From: a virus
Virus record (IMG/VR): IMGVR_UViG_3300012036_000004
Location: 1-64,000 of that record
Reading direction: 5' to 3' (one strand)
DNA: 64,000 nucleotides
Position numbers and translations under genes: made by a program. Position 1 is the stretch's first letter; each line of letters opens with the position of its first letter. The notes below the pieces were generated by a model. The model had not been told where the DNA came from, searched no databases, and saw only the letters and a program-made list of their open reading frames with translations. Positions 23,244 through 41,746 of this stretch are shown here, one piece after another.

Positions 23244-25190
23244 TTATCGCACGAGTGCCAGGCCGATCTCTCGGAACAGCGTGCTCATGTCGACGGGGTC
23301 CAACTCCGTTGGATTATTCTCTGCGGCATGTTTCAACACAGGGGCCGCCTTGTCAAATGTGTGTTGCAGTGCACTGAGAAGTGTTGTCGACCCCAGCATC
23401 GCGCCGTAAGGGTTTTCTCGACTCCACTGTATCGCACGGTGCGCTTCCGGCGGCGCTACTTGCGCAGCTCGGTCGCTAAGAAGTGCGGCAGTTAGGAGTG
23501 CGCCACCCGCCAGAGGAGTACCGACACGCCGAAGCGTGCTCGAGCGTTTCTCAACAAACTCGACGTTGGACGGTACGTCTACTCCTTCTCTTGTTTTGAC
23601 GGTGGGCATCTTCTGGGTGTCGTGCATCCACTTCATCGCACCGAGTCCGCCGAGCGCCATAGGTGCTGCAGCCGCCGGGATACGCGACGTCACTACTTTG
23701 TACGCGCCGCCTAATCCTGCGCCGAGTCCCGCCAGCTCAAGCATCTCTTTCCAGGTGTTGCTGACGTCGGCACGCTCTGCAGCGCGTCGTGTCGTCTGGT
23801 AGGTCTTTCCCGAGTTCGGATCGTCCCAGGTCAATGGCTGCCAGGTCGGGGTGTAGTAAGCAGCGTCTGCATCTACAGCACCCGTAGCGCCCGCCAGGTT
23901 TCCAAGGCTCTCTGGGACGTACTTTCGCGCGACGTATTCTTTCCACAGCGCGCGCTTTTCTTGGAGAGGTTCAACACTGTCCATCACGTCGTCACGGGCG
24001 TACTCAGCCCCTATTTTCAGTAGCCCCATGTCCTCAAACTGCGTGAGGATTTGCGGCGACCGGCTCATCAATGCGGCCACTTTGCCCTGCGACTTCGCAA
24101 TCTGCTCTTCGAGGAAAGGGTCGCTCTCTTTGCCTGCTTGCGCGCAGATGAACCGGAATAGCTCAACGGCAGTGGGCAGCATACCCATCTGCATGAACGA
24201 GTTCGCAAACTCCGGTAGCGATCGATGCTTGATTGTCTTGGTCATCGACATCGAAAGCGTCGGCGTATCCTGCATCGCAGGCCGCAACGCGTCCGCAAGC
24301 CGCCGTGTAGCGTGGTGCTCTTCAGGAGACATCGAAGGCGTGTCTCGCGGGTCCACGACGTCGCCGCATATGATCTTGTCGATGTCCGAGATCTTCAGTA
24401 GCGCTGAGCGCTTCTCAGATAGGTCTCGGACTTTAGTACCGAGCGCAGCGCTCGACTGCAGCACGTAAGGCTGCTCATGCGCGACCTTCTTCATCGTGAA
24501 GCCGATCGGGTCTGCCGGGCGGAACACGAATGAAATGTCGAACAGCAACGGGCTGGGGTTCCAGACAAAACATCGCTGTCCGTCAGGAAGCAGCGCATTC
24601 ATCCCGTAGCACGGGTCCATCCCATTGACGTGATGACAGTAGTCCGCTGTCGTCGGAGCCTGGTGGCCGCAAATCGAGCACACGTCGTACTTGATGCGGC
24701 AGCCCATCGAAACGCCAGGGTATTCTTCAGCGTCGATTCGTCCGACGATGTCTGCTGCTCGGGCGTTGTCGACCGACAAGAAGAGCTCCACTCGGTGCAT
24801 CTTCCAGTTGTAGAACGAGCGCAGCACGTCACCGTAGTTGTTCTCAGGGTCTTTGTTGATGTGGTGCTTGTAGACCGTCGCGTGCTCTTCGAAGGTCTTG
24901 TGGTGGTCAGGAAGCGTCTCTCCCGGAGCGATTGCCCAACCTCCGTTGACCTGAATAGGCTGCTCGGACCATGCGTCCCCGTTTCGGTTGGGGCCGTAGT
25001 ACTCGCCAGCTGACATCGCCAGAACCATGATGATGGTACGTCCGTCCACAGGGGCTAGCGTTCCAGCATAGTCCAGTGCAGTCTCCGAAGCGTACTTGTA
25101 CTGATGCCGATCTCCGGGATGGTAGATCTGGCACCGAGCTTCCCCTGTACGCTCGAAGTGACTGTCGAACTGGTAGATCTTGTCGAGCAT
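23244..25190 (-). CDS. Prohead maturation protease (assemblin/HK97 gp4-like) with C-terminal extension
   Basis: NRNGD; HH.NKDP (candidate catalytic His); GVSMG (candidate catalytic Ser); CSICG..C.H Zn insert; FDISFV..PAD. Confidence 0.75.
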   Translation of the reverse strand: MLDKIYQFDSHFERTGEARCQIYHPGDRHQYKYASETALDYAGTLAPVDGRTIIMVLAMSAGEYYGPNRNGDAWSEQPIQVNGGWAIAPGETLPDHHKTFEEHATVYKHHINKDPENNYGDVLRSFYNWKMHRVELFLSVDNARAADIVGRIDAEEYPGVSMGCRIKYDVCSICGHQAPTTADYCHHVNGMDPCYGMNALLPDGQRCFVWNPSPLLFDISFVFRPADPIGFTMKKVAHEQPYVLQSSAALGTKVRDLSEKRSALLKISDIDKIICGDVVDPRDTPSMSPEEHHATRRLADALRPAMQDTPTLSMSMTKTIKHRSLPEFANSFMQMGMLPTAVELFRFICAQAGKESDPFLEEQIAKSQGKVAALMSRSPQILTQFEDMGLLKIGAEYARDDVMDSVEPLQEKRALWKEYVARKYVPESLGNLAGATGAVDADAAYYTPTWQPLTWDDPNSGKTYQTTRRAAERADVSNTWKEMLELAGLGAGLGGAYKVVTSRIPAAAAPMALGGLGAMKWMHDTQKMPTVKTREGVDVPSNVEFVEKRSSTLRRVGTPLAGGALLTAALLSDRAAQVAPPEAHRAIQWSRENPYGAMLGSTTLLSALQHTFDKAAPVLKHAAENNPTELDPVDMSTLFREIGLALVR

Positions 25191-29037: not shown

Positions 29038-31611
29038 CTAGCTGGGTGCGTCTACGTTTTCGTCGCTTGCGACGATGGCGTTGATGCGAAGAATGGTATC
29101 TCCCATTCCCTCGAATAGCGACTGCAGCTTATCACGGATCTCGTTGTAGGTCCCGTCTCCGATTCTCTCACGAAGGATAGGCGCCTTCATTCGAACCTCG
29201 GTCAGCATGCGACCCAGGGCGTCAAGCGACTCTCGGACAGCAGGCAAAAAGCCCGACACCGTCGAGTCGAAATTGTTTGACTCAGCCAGCGACGCAATCG
29301 CCGCGGCATCAAACATGTCGGGGTCTTCGAGCTCCATGGCGGCTTCCATCATGCCAGGCTCTTCCACGGGCATACCGTCGGGTCCCACCGGCGGTGCGCC
29401 GCCTGGTCCCATTCCGGGCCCCATTCCGGGCCCCATTCCGGGTTCCATACCCTCAGGAGGCATCTCGCCTGGGTACATGCCGCCGCGTTCGGCCATCATC
29501 TGTGACCCGGCCGGGTCCATCGACGCCATGTCAGGTGCAGCGCCGCCCATCATCGCCGGGTTCATGGGCTCGATCGGGGGTGCCATGACTTCCGGCGCAG
29601 GAAGGCCCGTCTGCATCGAGAGTTCGTTGGCGCGGCCCACTACTGCCTGGATCGCTGCCATCTGAGTTTGAATGCTCTGCGCTTGTTGCGCCATCTGCGA
29701 CATGATGAGCTGGTTCTGCTCGGCGAGCTGGTCAGCCACTTCCTGTGCCGCCATCTCGACGACATTCGGGGGCGGAGGCATGGGAGGCATTCCGCCCATC
29801 ATCGCCGGGTCCATCATCGCCGGGTCCATCATCGCCGGGTCCATCATCGCCGGGTCCATCGGAGCTCCACCGGGAGGTGCTCCGCCAGGAGGCGGGCCTG
29901 CAGGCTGCGCAGTCTTGGTACGCTGAAGCACGTAGAACTGAGCAAGACCTTTGTCTCGCGCAGTTTTCACCGCTTCTTCAGCGTCGGGGACTGCGACGTT
30001 GTATTCGAAGACCAGGTGCTTGACCGTGGCCAGCTTGTCTCGTTCTGCTCCGTCTGTGTACAGGAAGCCTGCGCCTGCATCTTGGAGACGGATGATATCG
30101 GCGCCGGCTTCAGCCAGCTTATGGAAGTGGCTGTTCACTACGTCGCCAGCATCGCGAATGATCTCGTCTCCCGAGATCGTTTCTTTCACAGGGAGAAACG
30201 CCCACTGGTCGGGCACCAGAATCAGTGTAGCACTGTCGATACGGTCGCCCCGATCTTTCTTGTCGGCGAACGCGTAGGGGACGTAGTTCGTGTGCGGACT
30301 CCCGCTGGACGTCCTCTCTCCAATGAGGAGACGAGGTACCACGCCTGGTGCACCTTCAATCTGCTGCACCGTGACCTGGTTGCCGCTGTAGACCTGTCCG
30401 GCGGCGTAGTGCGAGCCGTCGGTTGACCAGGTCCGCTCCACTGCCATCGGCTCGAGCGCAATCAAGTTGCCCGGGTCGGGGTTGTAGAAGATACCCTTCT
30501 GATTGTTCTTGGGCTTCTCAGAGGTCGGCTTCGTCACGAGCTTCCACAGCTTCTCCGGAACCTCTTGAGGCCCAACGGGTTCCGCCACGAAGTCGTCCTT
30601 GAGCACGAAGAGCTCTCCGTCTTCCGTAAGCCCAGCGCGACACACATAGGAGCGCTTGCTCCGGTCGTCGTACTCGGTCTTGCCGGTCAGTCCTTTCCCG
30701 TAGCGAAGCGTGTTCTCGGTGAGCACTTTCCCGAAGATGAGCGCAATCTGTGTACGCCCATCGGTTCGGTAGATGCGGTAGTAACCGGTATCCGACGGGA
30801 TGGTGAGCTGCAGAGGCGTCTCCGTCTCGTACATCACCGCCATGTCGAGCTCGGGACGCTCGTCCCAGGCGGCGTAGCCCTGCTCAGCAATGGTTCGGAA
30901 CACATTGGACGAGTCTTCCTTTGCCTTCTCTTTGATCTCTTCGGCCGGAGTCTCCATCGTCATGAAGCTGACCGTCGGGGCCGCTTCTTTGACCTGGGGC
31001 AGGGCGCGAAGTGTTACGGCGTCGCGCAAAGCGTTTACCCCGTAAACATCGAAAGCGAACTTTGCGATGTGAGGGTTGTTCTCCAGGGTTCGAACGAAAG
31101 CCACCTTGACCGGGTTCGAGGCCTCCCACAGATAGGCGGGGAGGTTGGTGTGCTGATTGACGCTGGCGTAGCTGTACCGGCCTGTGGTCGGCGGGACGAC
31201 GATGTTTCGGATGTCGACGTCCGAAGACAGGGTCTCCGGGGCCTTCATGCTTTCGCCCATCTGCTGCTCGCCGACGTGCTCCACTTCAGTGAGCCACTGC
31301 TCGTTGAGTGGGAGCATCTGGTCGAGGCTCTTCACGTACATCGTGTCGAACGGCAGCATCTCGTTGTCGGCGAAGATGGCCGGGACGTGCACCTCTTCTC
31401 CGCCGCGCTCCACGATGAATGCGCCAACCGCGTGATTCGTCGAAGGGTCCGCCTCCTGAACTTTGAAAGACACGACCGAATCTACAATCTCGGGCGCCTT
31501 GGACACGAGCTGGGCGAAAGCGAGCTCTTGAAATGACTGCTCGAAGATCTCCTGCGGGTCGCCCCCGCCGGATTCTTGCATCATCATTTGTGTTCGGGGA
31601 GATACGGACAT
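29038..31611 (-). CDS. Large putative head protein with Pro/Met/Gly-rich region
   Basis: Start MSVSPRT; KxA motifs; DPAMM and GMGP repeats. Confidence 0.65.
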   Translation of the reverse strand: MSVSPRTQMMMQESGGGDPQEIFEQSFQELAFAQLVSKAPEIVDSVVSFKVQEADPSTNHAVGAFIVERGGEEVHVPAIFADNEMLPFDTMYVKSLDQMLPLNEQWLTEVEHVGEQQMGESMKAPETLSSDVDIRNIVVPPTTGRYSYASVNQHTNLPAYLWEASNPVKVAFVRTLENNPHIAKFAFDVYGVNALRDAVTLRALPQVKEAAPTVSFMTMETPAEEIKEKAKEDSSNVFRTIAEQGYAAWDERPELDMAVMYETETPLQLTIPSDTGYYRIYRTDGRTQIALIFGKVLTENTLRYGKGLTGKTEYDDRSKRSYVCRAGLTEDGELFVLKDDFVAEPVGPQEVPEKLWKLVTKPTSEKPKNNQKGIFYNPDPGNLIALEPMAVERTWSTDGSHYAAGQVYSGNQVTVQQIEGAPGVVPRLLIGERTSSGSPHTNYVPYAFADKKDRGDRIDSATLILVPDQWAFLPVKETISGDEIIRDAGDVVNSHFHKLAEAGADIIRLQDAGAGFLYTDGAERDKLATVKHLVFEYNVAVPDAEEAVKTARDKGLAQFYVLQRTKTAQPAGPPPGGAPPGGAPMDPAMMDPAMMDPAMMDPAMMGGMPPMPPPPNVVEMAAQEVADQLAEQNQLIMSQMAQQAQSIQTQMAAIQAVVGRANELSMQTGLPAPEVMAPPIEPMNPAMMGGAAPDMASMDPAGSQMMAERGGMYPGEMPPEGMEPGMGPGMGPGMGPGGAPPVGPDGMPVEEPGMMEAAMELEDPDMFDAAAIASLAESNNFDSTVSGFLPAVRESLDALGRMLTEVRMKAPILRERIGDGTYNEIRDKLQSLFEGMGDTILRINAIVASDENVDAPS
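29797..29860. repeat. 15-nt tandem repeat (CCATCATCGCCGGGT) encoding DPAMM; a 12-nt GMGP repeat lies at about 29404-29445
   Basis: Directly visible. Confidence 0.85.
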
Positions 31612-31618
31612 GGTTATC

Positions 31619-32134
31619 TCACTGCAGGATGCTGGAAAGTACGGCGTTGAGTACCGGAATTGATTGCAGCGCTGCTTCAGTCCCGACGTCACGGCCGACA
31701 TGCTTCAAAGCTTGTCGCGTGTCCGGAGAGTGCTTCAGGGTGTAGGCGCCTGCTCTCGCCTTGTCTCCCATGAGGGGCGCTCCCGAGGCCAACTGCACGA
31801 CGTCGAGTACGTTGATGATATCCTGCCGCTCTTCAGGGTCTTCGATATATGCGGAAGCGCCCAAAAGCATCGGCACCCTCGCAAGAAGCGTGATGTCGTT
31901 GATGCCCTTAGCGATCCGCAAAAGTTCTGCGTGTCGACCTTTCGCGTCGGGTGCGGGGGTAACGGGCGCGGCAACCTGTGCGCGCTGAGCTACAGGAGCT
32001 GGGCTCGCATGCAAAACCTCGGCTCGTTCGCGAGGCATCGCTGCCTGTAACAAGCCGAGATCAGGAGACGCCGAGACCGGAATCCCGCGTGCGGCAGCAA
32101 TCTGCGCCGCGCGGTTGGCATGTTGCCCGATCAT
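31619..32134 (-). CDS. Hypothetical protein
   Basis: GAGGG RBS; fills operon gap. Confidence 0.6.
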   Translation of the reverse strand: MIGQHANRAAQIAAARGIPVSASPDLGLLQAAMPRERAEVLHASPAPVAQRAQVAAPVTPAPDAKGRHAELLRIAKGINDITLLARVPMLLGASAYIEDPEERQDIINVLDVVQLASGAPLMGDKARAGAYTLKHSPDTRQALKHVGRDVGTEAALQSIPVLNAVLSSILQ

Positions 32135-32144
32135 GGCGCCCTCG

Positions 32145-33260
32145 TTATCGCGTCAGTTGATTGAGGCTACCGAGAAGCGAACCCACGGTGCTCTGCGGCG
32201 AGTACTGCTGCGCGACCTTCTGCAGGTACTGCTGCTGTGCGATCGGCTCGAGGCCCATGCACTGCTTGACGGCGGCGACCTTCTCTTCCATCGGCATCGC
32301 GTCCGGAAGCTGCGGGCCGACCAGTGTGGCGACCGCGTTGAAGTGTTGATTCCACTGCGCGTTCTTGGTGGCATCCACCACCGAGTTCGACGCGTCGCCG
32401 CTGTGCGCGGGCTGGTCAGGGTGAGGCGTTTCCATGCCGGTCACCGCGTTCGACGGGGTGCCGTCGAAGTTGGCTCCACCTTGTCCGACCGCTGCGTAGT
32501 CTTCGGGGCGCTGGGCGATGTCGAGCTTGCCTTCGCCGCTGGGCGAAGCGTGCTGCGTGTTCGGAGCGCTCGAAGCGCCGGTGATGGTCGACGACTCCGA
32601 ATCAGCCGGAGCCGAATCCTTCGGTTGGTCGCCCATGGCGAGCTTACGAAGCGCGGCCTGAACCGAGGCCTCTTTGGAGTTCGCCGAACTGTTCTGCGAC
32701 GCTCGGGTAACCGAGTTCGAATCGACGCCACCCGGTGCCTTCGGTGCCAGGGGGTGCTTCATCTCAGCGCCCTGAACTGCGTTGGCCGGAACCAATCCGT
32801 CGATGTTCGTGCCGCCCAGACCTTTGAGGTACGGGTCATTGGTGCCTTCACCACGGTGCTCGTCGAGGACTTTGTTCGCGTCCATCGAGTTCGCCGTGGT
32901 GTTGGGAGGCGAGGACTTTCCGTCAATCACGGACGAGCCCTGGTGCATCGCCTGTTTGACCAGGTGCGTGATCACGTCCCCGTACGCAACCTGCGGGTCG
33001 TGGTCGATGGTCGCGCCTTGTCCGGCCGAAGCGACCTTGCCCTGCTGGGAAAGTGCTTCGTTGAACGCAACGAGATGTTTCGCCACTTTGAACGTCTCCT
33101 CGTAGGGGACTGCATTCGCTGCAGGCTCGATATCGAGTGAGTTCGCCGCGATTGCGCATGCCTGCTTGAGCAGACCTTCGGTCGGGATTTGAGTGGTGCC
33201 CGTTCGCTGGAGGTAATTTCCAACTCCGCGGGCAAATGCAAGTTTCGTTACGCTGGACAT
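32145..33260 (-). CDS. Putative internal head protein with internal duplication
   Basis: AGGAG RBS; about 10 KxA motifs; two related ~100-aa modules. Confidence 0.65.
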   Translation of the reverse strand: MSSVTKLAFARGVGNYLQRTGTTQIPTEGLLKQACAIAANSLDIEPAANAVPYEETFKVAKHLVAFNEALSQQGKVASAGQGATIDHDPQVAYGDVITHLVKQAMHQGSSVIDGKSSPPNTTANSMDANKVLDEHRGEGTNDPYLKGLGGTNIDGLVPANAVQGAEMKHPLAPKAPGGVDSNSVTRASQNSSANSKEASVQAALRKLAMGDQPKDSAPADSESSTITGASSAPNTQHASPSGEGKLDIAQRPEDYAAVGQGGANFDGTPSNAVTGMETPHPDQPAHSGDASNSVVDATKNAQWNQHFNAVATLVGPQLPDAMPMEEKVAAVKQCMGLEPIAQQQYLQKVAQQYSPQSTVGSLLGSLNQLTR

Positions 33261-33328
33261 GAAAGCTCTCCTGGGAACGCGATGATGCGTGAAGTATATG
33301 GACTCGTCTTGAGATAAACAACCACGTT

Positions 33329-36300
33329 TTACCGCTTCCAGAACGGTGACGCAACAGCGCTACCGTTCTGGGAAGATTGCTGCGTCTTCATTCGATGCAG
33401 CTCTCGTGCGGGGTAGTGGCCGGACCGCACAGAGAAGTCTTGTTTCATTTGCGTTGGCAGACCGGGTCGCTGCTGTTGCTGTGCGCGAGCCTGCTCTGCG
33501 GCGAACTGCTGCTGCTGCCACATCTGACGCAATTGAGGAGAGTGCTGCTCCCACTCCGCTCTTGCCGTACCCAATGCGTCTTCTGCAAGGTTAAGTCGGG
33601 CGAGGTACGGATGGCTCTGCATCGAACCCCATACGGCGTCGGCACTCCGATCTCCGTACTGCGCAGCCTGACCCCACGCGTTGGGGTTCGTGCGCATCTG
33701 CTGCGGCGAGGGTCGGGCCGCCATTCGCTGTCCACCGGGAGGCTGACCTTGTGTTGGAGGCTGACCTTGTGTTGGAGGCTGACCTTGTGTTGGAGGCTGA
33801 TAGTTCGGGTCGATTTTCCGTCCGATGGCTTTTCCGGCTGCGGTGAACGGTGCCGCAAATGCGCCGCCGGAAAGCATCCCGAAGGGCGACCCGATGGCCC
33901 ACCCCAGCGAGTCGCCCAACGTGCCGCCGATATTCTCCAGCTTGGACTGCCCTTCGACGTCAGGGGCGTTGGCGGCTTCATGCACCATGGCCGCCGGCAT
34001 CCCGTACGCCATGCCCTTGTTCAATACGTCCATCGAGACGGGCAGGACCATACCACCGTATCCCGCATCCACGTTGGGGTTTCGCGCATTTCGCCAGGCA
34101 CGCATCACGTCCGGGTCGATCGCCATCTCTCCGTGAAGCAACCCGCCCCGCCCGAAGATGCCGCCCATCTGGGCACGCTGCTTCATTATCTTGAGGGGGT
34201 TCTGCCCGATCGACACGTCGCTGGCGCCGCGGGCAATGCGTCGCCCCAACCCTGGTCGCGCCGCCGCGTACTGCTGCGCCACGTCGGGGGTGAACATCTT
34301 TGCAGCCGCCGGATTGACGTTCTCCAAATCCACCTTGGCTCGAGCGAAGTCGGAGAGCGCTTTTCCGTGTGTCTCTTCGAACGCTTTCAAGCGTTCTCCG
34401 AATGCTTGGGCCGATTCATCCGCGCCTCGTCGCGGTACATTCTCCACTGCCTCGCGAGTGAATTGAGACAAGTTCAGGTGTGGATTGCGGCTCGCCTGCT
34501 GCGCCTCCTGGAGCGCGCCGCCGATGTTCTTGAAGGCCTTCTCATTGGAGTCGAGCGTTCGAACGAATCGCGCACCCTCGTCAGTGAGTTGGTTATTCTG
34601 AATCAGGTTCGCCCGAGACATGAAATCGTCGGGGAGTCGTTTCATACGGCGCGCAGCGTCGAGTGCCGCTGTGTCAATTCCGCCAGCCGTCCAGGGCGCA
34701 TCCGAGATCATGCGTAGGGCCTCGTCACCTTTGGAGGCGACCTGCTCCGCGAACTCATCACCCGACCCGACCAAAATGCGTTTCAAAAGACCAGCTTTGC
34801 TCGCGATCTTTTCCACGGCACCGCCGTCCGCAGCGTATTTCCCTTGTAGCCCCGTGCCGAACGGAGCGCCGATCGCGTAGGCAGGAACAGGACTGGTCGA
34901 CGCAATGTCGGTGGTCGAACCAAACCCTGCGCCTTCTACCAAGGTGCGCTTGAGGTAGCGGTGCGACAGACGAGACATCCAGTCGTCGTTGAGCAGCGGC
35001 GCCTGGATCATGGACTTCATGATAGGCGTCGTCACAGTAGGGAGGTTGGATACACTCACCGAGGCAATGCCGTTGTTCTTGAGCTCAGCTTGTACAGACG
35101 GCGTGATGCGTGTGCCTGTCGAGAAGTGCAGCGTCTGCTCTGCCAGGTAGTGACCCTTCGCTTTGCTCACCGGCACGCTCTTGCCGGCCTTTGACATGCG
35201 CTTCTGGACTTCGGTGTACGGAACGATGTCGCCACGCAGGAACTTGTCGGTCGGGTCTTCCTCGACCCGCACGTGCTTCATGGCGTTTCGAGCCAGTAAC
35301 TCCGTATGGCGACGGTCAATGTCCACGCCTTGGCGGCGGTACAGGTCTGTCAGTTGGTTCGACAGGTACACGCGGCCCGCGCCGATTCCCTTGTGTTTTA
35401 CGACGGCGTTCGGAAGTGCGACGCCGTCAGACAGTGCGTCACCCGCTTCGACGATGTCACCCTGTTTGACGATCGGCTGCAATCGCGGCGGAGTGTAGTA
35501 ATTCTTGCCGGCAACACGGATGTGCCACCCGCCCTGCGGCGCTTTCTTCACCGACTCGACGCGGCCGTCGTGTTCTGTGATAGCCGCCTTGTCTTGGAAC
35601 GATTTCGGGACTTCGGTGAGCGTACGAAACCCCGTGAGACCCGTGAGCTCGGTTGCGCCCTGGCCCTTTCCTTTGGCGAGTCGAACGCCGTGCTTGGCGT
35701 TTAGCGCGAACTGCGTCAACGGTTCGGTCATCGCCTGTGCGCTTCGTGCGCCGACATTCGTTCCGACCTGATGCGGTTTGCCCCACTCGTTGAGTCCCAC
35801 ACACTTCTGGCACACTCCATCATGGGCTTCGCATGCCGTGGGGCTTCGAACCAAAACCTTCGGTTTGTTGGCCTTTTTCAGCTTGTTGACGACGTCAGAT
35901 GTAACGAGGGTGTTCCGGGATACGGGACCCTCATCTCGCGCGAGGTAGCGGTCTTGCACCTGGTCTGTCACGGGAAGAAGAATCCCGCCTCTCGTGCCGC
36001 AGTCAGCTTGCGTCACCACCAGGTCGTCCATGTTGTTCATGACGACTTTGGCGACCATACCCGGCTCGACAACAGCGCCCGAGGAAGCGATCGCGTTTCG
36101 ACGTGATTCTACGCCGGTCACCCACGCGTCTGCCGGGTTGACTCCCTGCGAGTACGACTTGGTCACGAGCCACGGTGTCGCCTGGCCCTTGTTCATCGCG
36201 AGGACGGGTGACGCAACAATCTTCATGAGCTGCGCAATGGAGCCTCTGCCGCCTGACTTGGCCATGATGGTCATGTCGGAAGGATGATTCTCCGTGGCGG

Positions 36301-36640
36301 TGACCATCTTGTCCTGCGTCTCGAGCAGGATCTTTCGCTTCTCTTCGTCTGACTTGGCGGCTTTGATGCGACGAAGCGCGTCTTTCATGACAGGGTCGCG
36401 CTGTTTGTAGTCAGGCGCAATGTCATCCAGTCCCACCGAGATCCCTTCCAGGGTCGCAACTTCGTCGCCCAGTGACTTGAGTTTCATCACCGTCTTGACG
36501 TAAGTGTCCGGGTCCGACTTCGCGAGCTCCGTCATCTGCTTCTTGAGGATGCCTTTGGTCACCGGACCGTCCATCCTCATGTCGCCGGGAAGCGTCTCAT
36601 TGAGAAGGAAGTGCCCCAGAGTTTGATTGTCATCAGGCAC
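33329..36640 (-). CDS. RNA polymerase beta' C-terminal subunit fused to a ~490-aa Gly/Ala/Gln-rich domain
   Basis: SGGRGS; bridge-helix region; DCGT; RSPTAC...VCQKC Zn site; trigger loop AQAMTEPLTQ..L..KH; GGAGG RBS before GTG 36640. Confidence 0.9.
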   Translation of the reverse strand: MPDDNQTLGHFLLNETLPGDMRMDGPVTKGILKKQMTELAKSDPDTYVKTVMKLKSLGDEVATLEGISVGLDDIAPDYKQRDPVMKDALRRIKAAKSDEEKRKILLETQDKMVTATENHPSDMTIMAKSGGRGSIAQLMKIVASPVLAMNKGQATPWLVTKSYSQGVNPADAWVTGVESRRNAIASSGAVVEPGMVAKVVMNNMDDLVVTQADCGTRGGILLPVTDQVQDRYLARDEGPVSRNTLVTSDVVNKLKKANKPKVLVRSPTACEAHDGVCQKCVGLNEWGKPHQVGTNVGARSAQAMTEPLTQFALNAKHGVRLAKGKGQGATELTGLTGFRTLTEVPKSFQDKAAITEHDGRVESVKKAPQGGWHIRVAGKNYYTPPRLQPIVKQGDIVEAGDALSDGVALPNAVVKHKGIGAGRVYLSNQLTDLYRRQGVDIDRRHTELLARNAMKHVRVEEDPTDKFLRGDIVPYTEVQKRMSKAGKSVPVSKAKGHYLAEQTLHFSTGTRITPSVQAELKNNGIASVSVSNLPTVTTPIMKSMIQAPLLNDDWMSRLSHRYLKRTLVEGAGFGSTTDIASTSPVPAYAIGAPFGTGLQGKYAADGGAVEKIASKAGLLKRILVGSGDEFAEQVASKGDEALRMISDAPWTAGGIDTAALDAARRMKRLPDDFMSRANLIQNNQLTDEGARFVRTLDSNEKAFKNIGGALQEAQQASRNPHLNLSQFTREAVENVPRRGADESAQAFGERLKAFEETHGKALSDFARAKVDLENVNPAAAKMFTPDVAQQYAAARPGLGRRIARGASDVSIGQNPLKIMKQRAQMGGIFGRGGLLHGEMAIDPDVMRAWRNARNPNVDAGYGGMVLPVSMDVLNKGMAYGMPAAMVHEAANAPDVEGQSKLENIGGTLGDSLGWAIGSPFGMLSGGAFAAPFTAAGKAIGRKIDPNYQPPTQGQPPTQGQPPTQGQPPGGQRMAARPSPQQMRTNPNAWGQAAQYGDRSADAVWGSMQSHPYLARLNLAEDALGTARAEWEQHSPQLRQMWQQQQFAAEQARAQQQQRPGLPTQMKQDFSVRSGHYPARELHRMKTQQSSQNGSAVASPFWKR
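33738..33800. repeat. 18-nt tandem repeat x3 (QPPTQG)
   Basis: GGAGGCTGACCTTGTGTT repeated. Confidence 0.9.
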
Positions 36641-37292
36641 CGTACCCTCCAACGCCAGGGTTTCTCAGTTTCTTCGTTACGTTCACTCCGTCCGACAAAG
36701 ACCACGCGGTTCCGCCGGCCGCCAGTGCTTTGCCGGGCGTGCCCCGCGCCACTTCGGATGCCCGGTGACCAACGTTCGACATCATGCGTCGACCCGGAGA
36801 CATGCCTTCAGTCTTCGCCGCGTGTGTTGCAGCTCGCTCTGCTTTGGCTGTTTGAGACTTCACCGCGCTTGCCTGACGTCGGTTGGAGAAGAAGTTTCGA
36901 CTCTTCTTTCCGAAGTTGCTACTCCCTTTTCCGCCAGCTTTCCCAACCCCTTTGATGGCTTTCCCAACCCCTTTGATGACTTTCCCAACCCCTTTGGCGA
37001 AAAATTTCCCGCCCTGAATCAGCGGACTCAGTAACGCGATTTTCTCCATGTCCTCCGGAGTTGGGTGAAGCAGTGCTTGACGGAGCATTGCGGTCTTGAT
37101 GGAGGGGGCACCCATATCGATGCCCAGACGAGACGCGGCGTCCTGTCCGAACAGGGACGTGGGTTCACCCCACGTGAGCGGTTCGAGCCCATACAGGTTA
37201 TCGCCTTTGAGCTCCCGAATACCTTTGGGCTCGGAAGGCTCTTCCGTGATTCCCTCGAGCAGTTCTTTGACTCCGGTGATCTTCTTTTCCAT
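36633..37292 (-). CDS. Protein between the RNAP genes: acidic N-terminus, cationic amphipathic C-terminus
   Basis: TAATG coupling; IKTA and EKIA motifs; 21-nt repeat encoding KGVGK(V/A)I. Confidence 0.7.
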   Translation of the reverse strand: MEKKITGVKELLEGITEEPSEPKGIRELKGDNLYGLEPLTWGEPTSLFGQDAASRLGIDMGAPSIKTAMLRQALLHPTPEDMEKIALLSPLIQGGKFFAKGVGKVIKGVGKAIKGVGKAGGKGSSNFGKKSRNFFSNRRQASAVKSQTAKAERAATHAAKTEGMSPGRRMMSNVGHRASEVARGTPGKALAAGGTAWSLSDGVNVTKKLRNPGVGGYGA

Positions 37293-40200
37293 TAGGTCCT
37301 CTGAATCTTAACGGGGGTGCTCATCTTGATTTCGCCGCGTTTGTACGCTGCCATCGCATCGGCTTTCGAGTCAAAGACGCGCGTCTCGCCTTGCGGACCC
37401 TCTCGAGTTGCCATGTACGTCCCGATCAGCGCTTCGTGTGCCGGGAAGACCATGAGGTCATCCTTGGATACATCGCCGAGAAGAAGGTTGGACAGCGTCA
37501 TGCTCTTCGACTCAGATACGGCGGCGTCTGCCACAGGGACATGCAGCTGCACGGTGTCGCCATCATAGTCGGCGTTCATGCCTTGTTCTGCAAATGGATT
37601 CAGTCGAACGGTCTTGCCCGGGATGAGTTTCGGATACGCAGAAATGAGCCCAAATCGGTGCAGCGTGGGGGCTCGGTTCATGACGACAGGCCGTTTCTTG
37701 ACTTCGGTACCCAGGATGCGTCGAGCCGCCGGGTCTCGGTTCTTCACTTTCTTGCGGGCGTCTGCTGCGCGGTGCCCTGACTGGACCAGTCCTTTGACGA
37801 GGAAAGGTTCGTACATCTTCCAGGCCATCTCCTCAGGCATACCGACCTCGTCCATGTTCAGGTTGAGATCCGGAGCAATGGTTGCGCGGCCCGACAGGTC
37901 CTGACGTCGCTTCATCATGCGCGACTGGAAGTACCCATGCTTCGGCGAGCCGGTGCCTGTGATTTGCTGAAGATGCCCCTTCGTTCCTCGCCCCTGGTTC
38001 TGCGGAGACACGGGGTCATTGAAGCCGAACAAAGCACCGACCGAGTCGTGCAGGTGTTTGCGTCGCTTCTTCCGATCGTCATCGGTGTCGAGCTCCTCGG
38101 GCGTCTCGGTAATGGACTCGTTTGCCAGCATCACGTCTCGGTACAGGTAGTTTGCATCCGAGATGAGCATGGTCCCGTCGCTCGTGGGCATGATGGGGCG
38201 AATCGTCGGAGGCACGACCGGTACCTTCGACAGCACATAGGCGTCGCCCGCGGTCAGGTCTTCTTTGAGCAGAGCGTCGATGTACTTGATGCGCTTGACG
38301 GCATCGTCGAGCGTCGCGCCTCGAGCCGTTTTAATCTCCTGCTTCAGCTTCCGGCGTTCGCTCTTCAGGTCGATCTCGTTGAGCTTCTTTTTGACCTCAG
38401 ACGCCCCCTTGTCATCTCGGAATGCGCGGAATTCATTCTTCGTCATCCCCAGCATCCGACGGGCCGGGTCTTCGAACACCGGATTCACCACCGGCTCCGC
38501 CAGGTTAATCTTGGAGTACTTCGTGCCGGTCAGTCCGCCTGTCAGCGCGGGGTCAAACAGCCCTCCCTCCTCAGGCTGGAGCTGTGTAACGCCCTGGCGT
38601 TTCCGCGGCGTCACGAGCAGTGCGTTCTTCACTTCGGTCTTTGCCATCGAGTCGATGTCGCGGTCGGTGAGCGGGGCCAGGCTGTGTCGTGAACCCTTCT
38701 TGTTCACTTTGATGCCTGCTCCGTGCAGCATGTGATTGAACTTCTCGTAAGCGAAGTTCTCGCTCGGCATCGGAGCTGGAAGACCCAGTTGAATGCGGCG
38801 CCAGTACTCGTCGTTACGCTGTCCTTTAACGACCGCAGCCTCCTGCAGCACGTTTCGAGCGTTGTGCGCAAGGAGTGCGTTGAACTCCATCTTGCCCAGG
38901 GACTTCGCCCCCTCGTCACCGCCTTTGGTGGGCTGCATGTTGGAGTCGTACCCGGGGCCAATACCGCGAGCAGCGAAGTTGGTGTCGGTCGACTTGAACA
39001 GTTTGTAGGTGTACTGCCTCCCCACGTGGATGCCTGGGATTTTCTTTCCCGACATCGGGTCGTACACGGTTTCCTTGTCCTTGAGTCCGTTGTCCTTGAG
39101 TAGCTTCTTCGCCCACTTCACGTTGTCGTGGTCGGCGAACTGATCGATGATGACTGGCTTGCCTGTCTTTTCAGCGACCTTGCCGACCGCCGTCTCGAGA
39201 ATCTGACTGGGGTTGATTCGAGTGATCACGCCTGCAGACGTCATCAACACGTCGATCGGCTTGCCGGCCTCGTCTTTCACCATCTGGTCGTCCGGGACGA
39301 TCTTAGACACCACGCCTTTGTTCCCGTAACGCCCGGCCATTTTGTCCCCTACACCCATTGGCGCGTCCATCTTCACCGTGACGGTGATTTGTTTGTTGGT
39401 GACTGCGACGTCAATCACGGTGCCGGGATGGTCGTGATCCCACGTAATGGCCGCGTCCCGGTAAGGCTTCACCAGTGACTTGTGCAAGTTCCCCAGCATC
39501 TGCTGCTGGGCAGATGCCTGATCTTTTCGGATCGCAGAGATGAGGAGCTCACCGTGGTCCACCTGCTGGCCCTTCTTGATGATTCCCTTGGAGTCGAGCC
39601 GTTCGTACTCCGGACGCGAGTAGCGCGAGCCGAAGTAGGCCCGGTGCTTGTCCTTGTCTGTGGAGACCCCCTGGTCCAGCGACAGCGTCTCTTTGTACAT
39701 GTGCCTCGAAGTCAGCTTCTTGGACGCAGACTCCGAGATCACGACAGCGTCGTTGGAGTTGTAACCGTAGTAGGGCATGTATCCCACCGACAGATTCTTC
39801 CCCAGAGCAAGCGTTCCGTTGCGAGTGAAGTTGGTCTCCGCCAGGGCCTGCCCCTGTTGGACTCGCTGGCCTTTCTTCACGTTGACGTCGTCGTGCATGT
39901 ACGTCTTGGACATCAAGGGGAAGTCCGTAGCGTAAGGCACCTTGACGAGATCGTCTGTCTTGGCCGCGGCGGTCTTCATCCATGCAGAAAGGGATTTTTC
40001 CTGAGGCCCTTCAGCGCTTCGCTTGGAGCGATCAGGTCGGATGTAGATGTAGTCTTTGTCGATCTTCTCCACAGTGCCAGCGGTCGGCGACATGGGAACG
40101 ATGAGCTCACCCATCTGTTTCTCGACAGTCTTCTCCGGGTCCCACGACCGAATTTGTACATAAGGCTCGTCTCGATCAATGAGCGGCAACGCCTGGGTGT

Positions 40201-41746
40201 GCATCTTGGACCCCATGATGTTTCGGTTGCCCTGCGCGCTGTTCAAAAACGGCACGAGATTCGTCGTCGGGCTGTACATCCGGGAGGGGTCGGGGACTTC
40301 ATAGTCCACCTCCGAAGAGTTTACTGAGTAAACCTGTCCGTTCTTCAGTGCGTCGATCTTCTTGCGCCCGCCCAGCTTCTGGTTCGGGAACGCGACGGTT
40401 TTCTCCATCAGCTTCGACGCCTTCACGTACTCGAGTTTCCCGTTCTTGGTGTTGCGCATCTGGGCGTACATGTTTCCTTCGTCGTCACGCCGAGCGAACA
40501 TCGAAGTTCGCACATCGATGCCTGCTTTCCCTGATTCGGGCGTTCGCACCGGGTCAAGGATACCCAGATGGGAGTGATGCACGTCTCGAGCTTCGTCTGG
40601 TACGGCCAAAGTCGACGAAATACCCCCCTCACCTAGCGAGGTGACTTTAACGGCATGATCAACGATCTCCATCGGATTTATCTGCATCGGCGTCGCAGTG
40701 AGTGCGGACGTCGTCACAAAAGAGTGGAGGGATTTCGTGAAAGGAGACGACGGCATGATGTCCGAGACCTTCGGATTGTCCCCGGCCTTCCGAAGACGCA
40801 TCTTGACCTTTCGAGAGATGTCTGGCGCTGCGTCTTTCTCAACTCGTTCCTTCAAAAACGACTCAACCGTGTGGATGGTCTTGAACGCAGTCGAGTCTCG
40901 ATCGTCCTGCTCCTCTTTGTCGTTGTAGACGTTCAGAATCTTCTGACTGGCTCGCAGAAGCGTCTTGGGTTCGACCTTAGAGAACTTCTGACCCAGCGTG
41001 ATGTTGGTGACCTCCGGATCGAGCTGCGTACGGTCGTACGAGTCCCGGATCGCCTCCAACATCTCCTGGTGATTCGGGTTGTCCTCCTGCAGAAAGCTTG
41101 GAATGAGCTTTTTGTAGAGCTTTCGGACGTACCGAGCTTCCTTGCCGGCGGCGTACTTCTTGTTGAGTTGAAGTACGTCCTTGCCCCAATACTTGGTGAT
41201 CTCTGTATCCCGCACCCCCAGGGCTGACAGGGCCCCGTAGAGCGGAATCTTGCTTGAGCCGTACTCCATGAAGATGAGACCGCGGTCTGGGTCGAGCGAC
41301 AACCGGAAGTTACGTCCCTTGGCGAGGTTGAATGCGGACTCGAGCTCTCCGTTGCCGCGCTGCCGTGTGTAGACCCCGGGCTTGATTCGAACCTGGTTGG
41401 AGACGGTGTAGTCATTGCCCTTCATGATGAAGGTGTGCCGCTCTGTGAAGTACGGGATCTGCGCCAGAGTTCGCTTGCTCGTATCCAGTATCTTACCCGT
41501 CTTCTTGTCACGAACAACGACCGTACCCTTCATCGGCTCGACCAAGGTCTTGCCCTCCAGGATGGCTTTCTTCTGCTCGGAGGGAGAGAACACTTTGTTC
41601 GTCGGTTCGACGTCCTGAATCTCCACAATGTGCTTATCTGTCTCGACCCGAAAGTCCTGAATCCCCTTCCTGACGTGGTCTCGAATCATCTCACGCCGTT
41701 CTTCAGCGCGCCCCATCAGGGGATAGAGTGTTGGGTTTTTCGCCAC
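37292..41746 (-). CDS. RNA polymerase beta - beta' N-terminal fusion (catalytic subunit)
   Basis: Beta motifs: RTPESG, MGSKMHTQA, GYNSNDA, GDKMAGRYGNKGV, RINPSQ, GKMEFNAL. Beta' motifs: PVVPP.IRP, D.SGRATI, NRAPTLHR, NADYDGD. Confidence 0.95.
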   Translation of the reverse strand: MAKNPTLYPLMGRAEERREMIRDHVRKGIQDFRVETDKHIVEIQDVEPTNKVFSPSEQKKAILEGKTLVEPMKGTVVVRDKKTGKILDTSKRTLAQIPYFTERHTFIMKGNDYTVSNQVRIKPGVYTRQRGNGELESAFNLAKGRNFRLSLDPDRGLIFMEYGSSKIPLYGALSALGVRDTEITKYWGKDVLQLNKKYAAGKEARYVRKLYKKLIPSFLQEDNPNHQEMLEAIRDSYDRTQLDPEVTNITLGQKFSKVEPKTLLRASQKILNVYNDKEEQDDRDSTAFKTIHTVESFLKERVEKDAAPDISRKVKMRLRKAGDNPKVSDIMPSSPFTKSLHSFVTTSALTATPMQINPMEIVDHAVKVTSLGEGGISSTLAVPDEARDVHHSHLGILDPVRTPESGKAGIDVRTSMFARRDDEGNMYAQMRNTKNGKLEYVKASKLMEKTVAFPNQKLGGRKKIDALKNGQVYSVNSSEVDYEVPDPSRMYSPTTNLVPFLNSAQGNRNIMGSKMHTQALPLIDRDEPYVQIRSWDPEKTVEKQMGELIVPMSPTAGTVEKIDKDYIYIRPDRSKRSAEGPQEKSLSAWMKTAAAKTDDLVKVPYATDFPLMSKTYMHDDVNVKKGQRVQQGQALAETNFTRNGTLALGKNLSVGYMPYYGYNSNDAVVISESASKKLTSRHMYKETLSLDQGVSTDKDKHRAYFGSRYSRPEYERLDSKGIIKKGQQVDHGELLISAIRKDQASAQQQMLGNLHKSLVKPYRDAAITWDHDHPGTVIDVAVTNKQITVTVKMDAPMGVGDKMAGRYGNKGVVSKIVPDDQMVKDEAGKPIDVLMTSAGVITRINPSQILETAVGKVAEKTGKPVIIDQFADHDNVKWAKKLLKDNGLKDKETVYDPMSGKKIPGIHVGRQYTYKLFKSTDTNFAARGIGPGYDSNMQPTKGGDEGAKSLGKMEFNALLAHNARNVLQEAAVVKGQRNDEYWRRIQLGLPAPMPSENFAYEKFNHMLHGAGIKVNKKGSRHSLAPLTDRDIDSMAKTEVKNALLVTPRKRQGVTQLQPEEGGLFDPALTGGLTGTKYSKINLAEPVVNPVFEDPARRMLGMTKNEFRAFRDDKGASEVKKKLNEIDLKSERRKLKQEIKTARGATLDDAVKRIKYIDALLKEDLTAGDAYVLSKVPVVPPTIRPIMPTSDGTMLISDANYLYRDVMLANESITETPEELDTDDDRKKRRKHLHDSVGALFGFNDPVSPQNQGRGTKGHLQQITGTGSPKHGYFQSRMMKRRQDLSGRATIAPDLNLNMDEVGMPEEMAWKMYEPFLVKGLVQSGHRAADARKKVKNRDPAARRILGTEVKKRPVVMNRAPTLHRFGLISAYPKLIPGKTVRLNPFAEQGMNADYDGDTVQLHVPVADAAVSESKSMTLSNLLLGDVSKDDLMVFPAHEALIGTYMATREGPQGETRVFDSKADAMAAYKRGEIKMSTPVKIQRT

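Follow-up and report, generated by a model that had tools for sequence, protein, structure and literature searches.

A bipartite RNA polymerase gene in a late gene block

We analysed a 64-kb stretch of viral DNA (hereafter the window) that forms the first part of the 101.7-kb IMG/VR virus record IMGVR_UViG_3300012036_000004, whose completeness is estimated at 57%. Within the window, one late block is read from the minus strand and carries RNA polymerase (RNAP) genes followed by the open reading frames (ORFs) of a head module. The subject of this study is the ORF at 33329-36652 (-), a frame open for 1107 amino acids (aa) in which the C-terminal half of an RNAP beta' subunit (beta'C) is continued by a 501-aa extension, here called the tail. 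The partner subunit of beta'C is encoded at 37292-41746 (-) as a single chain of 1484 aa combining beta with the N-terminal half of beta' (beta'N), including the catalytic barrels (Pfam Rpb2_6, Rpb2_3 and Rpb2_2 together with Rpb1_1 and Rpb1_2), and is the sole beta-like gene in the whole record. Among cultured phages, the nearest relatives are Salmonella phage Arash and Vibrio phages D69, D148 and D181, all of ~180 kb.

Residues 1-606 of the 1107-aa ORF (34835-36652, -) constitute beta'C. PF04998 (RNA_pol_Rpb1_5) matched residues 200-463 with 58.9 bits against a curated cut-off of 28.5, phrog_25354 was found at an E-value of 4e-34, and RNAP similarity detected with Pfam and PHROG together extended over residues ~26-483. 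BLASTP against Arash gp216 (606 aa) gave 30% identity over all of gp216, the last residue of which was paired with Y606 of the window. An earlier note, made by a model from the letters of this DNA, had described a beta'C fused to an extra domain; this was borne out, since both the profile similarity and the Arash alignment end before the tail, and the length of ~490 aa then proposed for the domain is corrected here to 501 aa (residues 607-1107; 33332-34834, -). The true start of beta'C may be the TTG at 36652 or a codon nearby. The first ~24 residues read from this TTG (36580-36652, -) align with the N-terminus of Arash gp216. For two homologues from JGI, P0002 and P0003, the gene call begins at an ATG further in, and the annotated proteins are probably too short at the start.

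The extension begins where unfused beta' genes stop

The C-terminus of Arash gp216, ...GGDFGNGHNGRY, aligned with ...GAPFGTGLQGKY in the window, ending at Y606. We checked, as the earlier note had suggested, whether homologous beta'C genes stop at this position, and they do: in all ten unfused homologues, namely those of Arash, D69 (D69_0264, 609 aa) and eight IMG/VR relatives (44-52% identity), beta'C stops at ...G(K/R/G)Y. The ancestral stop codon would have stood directly after Y606. Past this residue the window reads AADGGAVEKIASKAG... and continues for 501 further residues without a stop. The junction K605-Y606-A607 (34832-34840, -) was read as ...PVPAYAIGAPFGTGLQGKY / AADGGAV EKIA SKAG..., and the succession GKYA-ADGGAV-EKIA noticed earlier behind the RNAP part is therefore present, with K605-A607 at its beginning and E614-A617 at its end. 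The latter, E614-K-I-A617 (34802-34813, -), is the E-K-x-A signal seen throughout the family, here directly preceding the tail domain, and a candidate processing or targeting site. Alanine directly follows GKY in 10 of the 12 fused forms described below, though their linkers are otherwise free.

The tail corresponds to a separate gene in most relatives

A profile search with the tail (hmmsearch) retrieved 82 clusters at E ≤ 1e-3, 35 of them at E ≤ 1e-10. About 70 of the 82 match the tail core and are stand-alone proteins, 150-480 aa in length, and the window tail scored an E-value of 3e-58 against a profile of 62 family members. In all loci whose flanking DNA is long enough (L006-L011, L013, L017, L018 and L022), the stand-alone gene directly follows beta'C, and its start often adjoins or overlaps the beta'C stop codon; synteny is kept further downstream with homologues of the 371-aa, 887-aa and 239-aa ORFs of the window. 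In locus L012 this place is probably taken by a diverged member, which the family profile does not detect. The N-termini of the stand-alone proteins read ...(L/M)EK(Q/T/R/S)AG followed by LL(R/K)RxLxGxG, equivalent to residues 8-25 of the window tail (AVEKIASKAGLLKRILVGSG), and some members are leaderless and start at about the end of the motif. The family core comprises, in this order, KQRYxQGGxxGKGG, NxxFxxGxPA and a glycine zipper. The first of these elements, a KQRxQxGGxxG(K/R)GGL motif conserved among the 62 family members, occupies residues 824-839 of the ORF (34136-34183, -), and R220, G224, G225, G228, G230 and G231 (tail numbering) are nearly invariant. Since the tail was formerly a separate adjacent gene, the 1107-aa ORF represents an end-to-end in-frame fusion by stop loss and not a domain grown onto beta'.

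The tail had no match in Pfam or PHROG, a sequence profile search of the PDB returned a chance-level row only, and the ESM Atlas contained only unnamed viral clusters with scores below 0.9. A viral contig scan with the tail alone gave no match; a hand-made degenerate DNA pattern was successful, the 62-row alignment being too diverse for pattern derivation. No tail-family member could be detected anywhere in the Arash and D69 genomes, which indicates that the RNAP core does not need the tail protein. We also considered whether the tail could be a homologue of the large structural protein encoded after beta'C (Arash gp218, D69 0266); this was rejected (BLASTP E > 1), that protein matching the 887-aa ORF of the window.

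A single old fusion

Two JGI proteins (1043 and 1039 aa) have the whole architecture in common with the window ORF, the RNAP part being ~80% identical by eye and the tail 53-54%. Fused genes are also present in two IMG/VR loci (975 and 1071 aa), and seven additional fused clusters, 938-1096 aa in length, came from a full HMMER scan of 1.8 billion representatives. When the beta'C tree was rooted with Arash and D69, all 12 fused sequences fell into one clade (support 87/95), and a single change sufficed in 92% of bootstrap trees. Their placement in one clade points to a single old fusion and not to an assembly error. As judged from the tree, a single loss of the beta'C stop codon took place, in an ancestor from which one clade of these ~180-kb phages descends. 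As the window is part of one metagenome-derived contig, we considered a stop missed, or a frameshift introduced, at 34790-34860; this is effectively refuted, and its probability negligible, as 12 independent fused sequences from different samples, with beta'C 50-80% identical, maintain one open frame across linkers of differing length.

The linker between beta'C and the tail domain ranges from 10 to about 130 aa across the fusions. In the fused homologue P0007, residues ~602-725 form a ~125-aa insert with a GNAT-like motif (..YVNPDFRGQGLAKALM..) between beta'C and E-K-T-A, indicating that the linker tolerates whole domains.

Two products might also arise without proteolysis if translation of the tail began, additionally or exclusively, at an internal start close to the junction, in which case the long ORF would overstate the fusion. 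An in-frame GTG at V613 precedes E-K-I-A and would give M-E-K-I-A, resembling the stand-alone N-termini MEKNA and MSMEKTA. However, in none of the 12 fused sequences does a stop separate the two frames, so that a ribosome translating beta'C continues into the tail; the GTG is preceded, at a distance of 4 nt, by no more than a weak GGCGG, and a promoter-like site was looked for in 32900-37400 and none was found. We regard this explanation as very improbable.

A short motif is enriched in head-module proteins

All three-residue contiguous and gapped patterns were scanned, with no prior choice, in 4803 residues of head-module proteins. E-K-x-A ranked first, with 19 occurrences against 2.2 expected (p 4e-12), followed by K-V-A, K-T-A, K-x-A-S and K-x-A-A. 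Permutations of the E, K and A residues occurred 0-4 times, and in the rest of the record E-K-x-A was found 10 times against 5.9 expected. Nine relatives were scanned likewise, and in the corresponding proteins of six of them the same patterns took first place or a place close to it; Arash had 14 occurrences against 1.4 expected, and D69 had 18 of K-x-A-S against 1.85 expected. The motif also has a preferred position. In five other head-module proteins of the window it is located at residues 13-30, and 22 of 75 stand-alone tail homologues have it among their first 45 aa, compared to 2.4 by shuffling, with four copies elsewhere in 16,950 residues. Among the fusions, [ED]-K-x-A is located upstream of the tail domain in 10 of 12, and 4-12 residues before the domain in nine.

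N-terminal tags of the form M-x-PFE-x-GY-x-x-F-x-K-x-A were observed on several proteins at 88.9-91.4 kb of the record (G000), outside the window. A similar tag starts the stand-alone tail homologues L006:11791-12330 and L011:11788-12402 (MTPYDLGKYA.. and MTPFESGW..GLTKTA). Taken together, these tags suggest that K-x-A closes leaders on more than one cargo class.

Many head proteins thus share this short consensus, frequently close to the N-terminus, and the same module contains a candidate prohead protease gene (23244-25190, -; 648 aa), the N-terminal ~260 aa of whose product match phrog_18299, 'head maturation protease', at an E-value of 9.4e-10. Judged on its distribution, E-K-x-A behaves as expected of a leader or cleavage signal common to head cargo, and we infer that E-K-x-A (often K-x-A-S) marks leaders or cleavage sites of head-packaged cargo.

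That the cargo may include the RNAP is suggested by Arash, in whose particles the beta subunit gp206 is the most-detected protein (3516 spectra) and beta' gp216 accounts for 1210 spectra (PMC10585845). The slot after beta'C is occupied in Arash by an SNF2-type helicase gene, gp217 (L001 10803-12221), the product of which has a virion abundance like that of beta' (1148 spectra). In the window the RNAP genes stand at the head of the head-morphogenesis block, and from this position and the homology to Arash we infer that the RNAP of this phage would be packaged in the head.

Composition and predicted structure of the tail

As the earlier note had stated, the tail is rich in Gly, Ala and Gln and carries a glycine zipper: Ala amounts to 15-17% and Gly to 10-16%, and Gln reaches 19% in the last 157 aa. 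A motif scan located the zipper at G909xxxG913xxxG917xxxG921xxxG925xxxG929 (33863-33928, -), a predicted helix-turn-helix hairpin; GDSLGWAIGSPFGMLSGG at residues 913-930 is part of this run of six Gly at i+4 spacing. Its Kyte-Doolittle value of 1.09 over 19 aa is moderately hydrophobic and below the usual transmembrane level. The zipper had been likened to those of neighbouring internal proteins, and this was correct insofar as the neighbours have Gly/Ala-rich hydrophobic stretches, but none of them has a hydrophobic GxxxGxxxG; the only other match to this pattern among them is a Gly/Met/Pro repeat of the 887-aa ORF. Paralogy of the tail with these proteins was rejected on the same absence of a hydrophobic zipper and because the family profile finds one copy and no second in the 101.7-kb record, leaving their homology unsupported.

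An AlphaFold2 (AF2) model of the tail, built from a 62-sequence alignment, was all-helical with a predicted local distance difference test (pLDDT) score of 75 and confident over tail residues ~50-350. When the 206-aa tail core was modelled alone, pLDDT rose to 84. The helices of the zipper hairpin were predicted at a pLDDT of ~90. The E-K-x-A segment was predicted to be helical with moderate confidence. Structural comparisons of the hairpin with VIA-align gave SlyB, TraT and Tim17/22/23 as best neighbours (Z about 5-6.6 over 52-86 residues, within the tool's noise range for helical models), and for the whole tail and the core domain the best Z of 6.0-6.6 was likewise inside helical-model noise. 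Foldseek searches of the tail returned nothing at E ≤ 0.001 in the PDB and BFVD, tape-measure rows from BFVD being non-significant (E ≥ 0.07), and the tail matched no Pfam glycine-zipper family at E ≤ 0.1. A complex prediction for beta'C with tail residues 1-355 had a score of 0.00 and gave no verdict. A membrane role of the glycine-zipper tail is consequently no more than a lead. Given the moderately hydrophobic zipper and the weak matches to membrane hairpins, the analysis neither supports nor excludes the earlier idea that a pilot for ejection or for the membrane is tethered to the RNAP.

The C-terminal part of the tail (33332-33802, -) is Gln/Pro-rich by composition and of low confidence (pLDDT < 50), and its last ~150 residues differ in length among relatives. 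It contains a perfect 18-bp tandem repeat of 3.5 copies (33738-33800; tandem repeat finder) encoding PPTQGQ repeats; absence of this repeat from the closest homologues indicates a recent expansion.

Proposed processing of the fusion protein in the prohead

We favour, with somewhat better than even confidence, the interpretation that the fused ORF encodes a head-packaged polyprotein from which the prohead protease releases beta'C and a cargo protein with the glycine zipper. If the RNAP is packaged in the head and E-K-x-A marks its cargo, the 1107-aa product would enter the prohead as a polyprotein. The candidate protease (23244-25190) would then cut at K-Y-A and/or E-K-I-A, in a register after E, K or A, and release beta'C with a near-native C-terminus together with a ~490-aa glycine-zipper protein. 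These products would equal those made by unfused relatives from two coupled genes, and the fusion would ensure 1:1 synthesis and co-packaging of beta'C and the zipper protein. More speculatively, the released glycine-zipper protein might act on the membrane of the host while DNA and RNAP are being ejected. A polyprotein cut in the prohead had been one of the suggestions of the earlier note, and it is now partly supported by comparison, through the formerly separate gene, the enrichment of E-K-x-A, and the presence of the motif, as of the junction Ala, in 10 of 12 fusions.

Several observations weigh against this interpretation. For every family member, cleavage is a prediction from sequence comparison. 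RNAP packaging was measured in Arash alone, in which the protein is ~30% identical and the tail family is missing, and the Arash proteome lists 116 proteins, so that some carry-over is possible. A tblastn search with the tail and two stand-alone members against 50,697 phage records gave no match, and no cultured-phage member was found. The predicted helical E-K-x-A segment may be a docking element and not a scissile site, and the Ala after GKY could come from a single ancestor instead of selection.

Some of these points would suit the main rival, a permanent, uncleaved fusion, in which the tail serves as a tethered encapsidation or ejection domain of the virion RNAP and E-K-x-A is a docking motif loading cargo into the prohead. 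The tail would then resemble the non-catalytic domains of N4 gp50 or the tape-measure portion of P23-45 gp96. The predicted helicity of the E-K-x-A region fits such a role, the fusion persists through deep divergence (beta'C ~50% identical, tail ~25-37%), and virion RNAPs joined to structural or ejection parts are known (PMC10770324). Yet most relatives make beta'C and the tail protein separately, and tethering is therefore not required; linkers vary freely and even accept the ~125-aa GNAT-like insert, the motif is found at the N-terminal edge of many unrelated head proteins like a cleavable leader, and some stand-alone members lack any leader. On balance we consider a permanent tether unlikely, if far from negligible.

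The tail protein might instead be an accessory or specificity subunit of the RNAP, the fusion being a Rosetta-stone sign of a complex with no membrane or ejection role. A functional analogue would be the fifth subunit of the phiKZ or AR9 RNAPs. Strict gene adjacency, with start and stop codons often adjoining or overlapping, and retention of the fusion are in keeping with this proposal, as are sigma-factor rows returned by Foldseek, which are weak and non-significant (E ~1). However, Arash and D69 have the same two-gene RNAP and no detectable member, the tail has no RNAP-related Pfam or PHROG match, and it carries a head-cargo leader motif and a glycine zipper, then a Q/P-rich low-complexity end. 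We therefore hold an accessory subunit to be quite improbable.

Cleavage in the prohead, the interpretation that we favour, could be extended to a broader scheme that we put forward as a speculation and think rather unlikely in its entirety. E-K-x-A/K-x-A-S would constitute a previously undescribed cargo-loading and cleavage code of the whole family of ~180-kb virion-RNAP phages. The zipper protein would be an RNAP pilot, loaded with the polymerase (here as one chain) and freed or tethered in the head; on infection, it would form an oligomeric zipper pore or anchor in the host membrane for RNAP entry and the start of early transcription.

Neighbouring genes of the block

Between the two RNAP genes lies a 219-aa ORF (36633-37292, -) that has 1 base in common with the stop codon of the upstream gene and a 20-nt overlap with the TTG start of beta'C. 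It had no match in Pfam or PHROG. Homologues were found only in loci L004 and L005, both of the fused clade, and one E-K-I-A motif is located inside the ORF. After the 1107-aa ORF the block continues with ORFs of 371, 171, 887, 239, 273, 417 and 356 aa, and it also holds a Q-rich scaffold-like ORF and a weak major-head-protein match. The 887-aa ORF (29038-31701, -) is a homologue of the Arash structural protein gp218 and contains MDPAM and GMGP short-repeat tracts near residues 600-770; its homologue in L004 is enriched in similar MDP and DPS repeats. The 648-aa candidate protease had no match in Pfam or in PDB sequence searches. Its ~380-aa C-terminal extension displays Gly/Ala-rich hydrophobic stretches and two [ED]-K-x-A motifs, which suggests self-processing or a fused scaffold or cargo part.

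Comparison with known systems

The fusion described here bears on how a large multisubunit RNAP gets into a phage head and from there into the host. It is a natural Rosetta-stone link that ties the polymerase to a single uncharacterised but conserved cargo protein, so that the fused clade predicts which protein to follow in order to learn how the RNAP travels. E-K-x-A is a short, statistically strong signal common to the head cargo of a phage family that includes the cultured phages Arash and Vibrio D69.

These two phages are the closest comparison. Arash gp216 and D69 VPHD69_0264 are homologous to the window over the whole of beta'C, and both phages have a two-gene RNAP with a beta-beta'N fusion, RNAP genes that adjoin head genes, and E-K-x-A / K-x-A-S enriched in neighbouring structural proteins. 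In contrast to the window, their beta'C ends ...GRY with no tail, and in Arash the SNF2-type helicase gene comes next.

The predicted hairpin can be compared with SlyB, TraT and Tim17/22/23, with which it shares a GxxxG run (five repeats here) in a helix-turn-helix, albeit with a weak structural match. It differs from them in having no Pfam glycine-zipper match, a hydropathy of 1.09 and a Z within helical noise.

The virion RNAPs N4 gp50 and crAss-like gp66 have flanking non-catalytic domains. In Thermus phage P23-45, gp96 is a virion RNAP fused to a tape measure protein (TMP) (PMC10770324). As in these three cases, the window would join a putatively virion-delivered RNAP to a part thought to act in packaging or envelope crossing. 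The differences are nevertheless considerable. The RNAPs of P23-45, N4 and crAss-like phages are single-chain, whereas in the window the fusion affects only the last subunit of a multisubunit enzyme of beta/beta' type; the tail is probably not a tape measure, as tblastn against phages and Foldseek gave no sequence match and no confident fold match to their partner regions. Moreover, and unlike in those systems, most relatives encode the partner as a gene of its own, and a probable cleavage signal is found at the joint.

Prohead proteases recognise (L/I)-x-E in T4 and (S/A/G)-x-E in phiKZ and SPN3US, and virion RNAP subunits of SPN3US are among the internal head proteins (PMC10052503). Like the capsid targeting sequence (CTS) of T4 and the propeptides of phiKZ and SPN3US, the presumed leader in the window ends in a short consensus that many head proteins share, and the head module includes a protease gene. 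The consensus itself, E-K-x-A(S/G/A), differs from both established sites, and the 'leader' would comprise all 606 aa of an enzyme subunit, which would be retained after the predicted cleavage and not discarded. We conclude that the fusion is a variant of a known theme, exemplified by N4 gp50, the TMP-RNAP of P23-45 and the propeptides of T4 and phiKZ.

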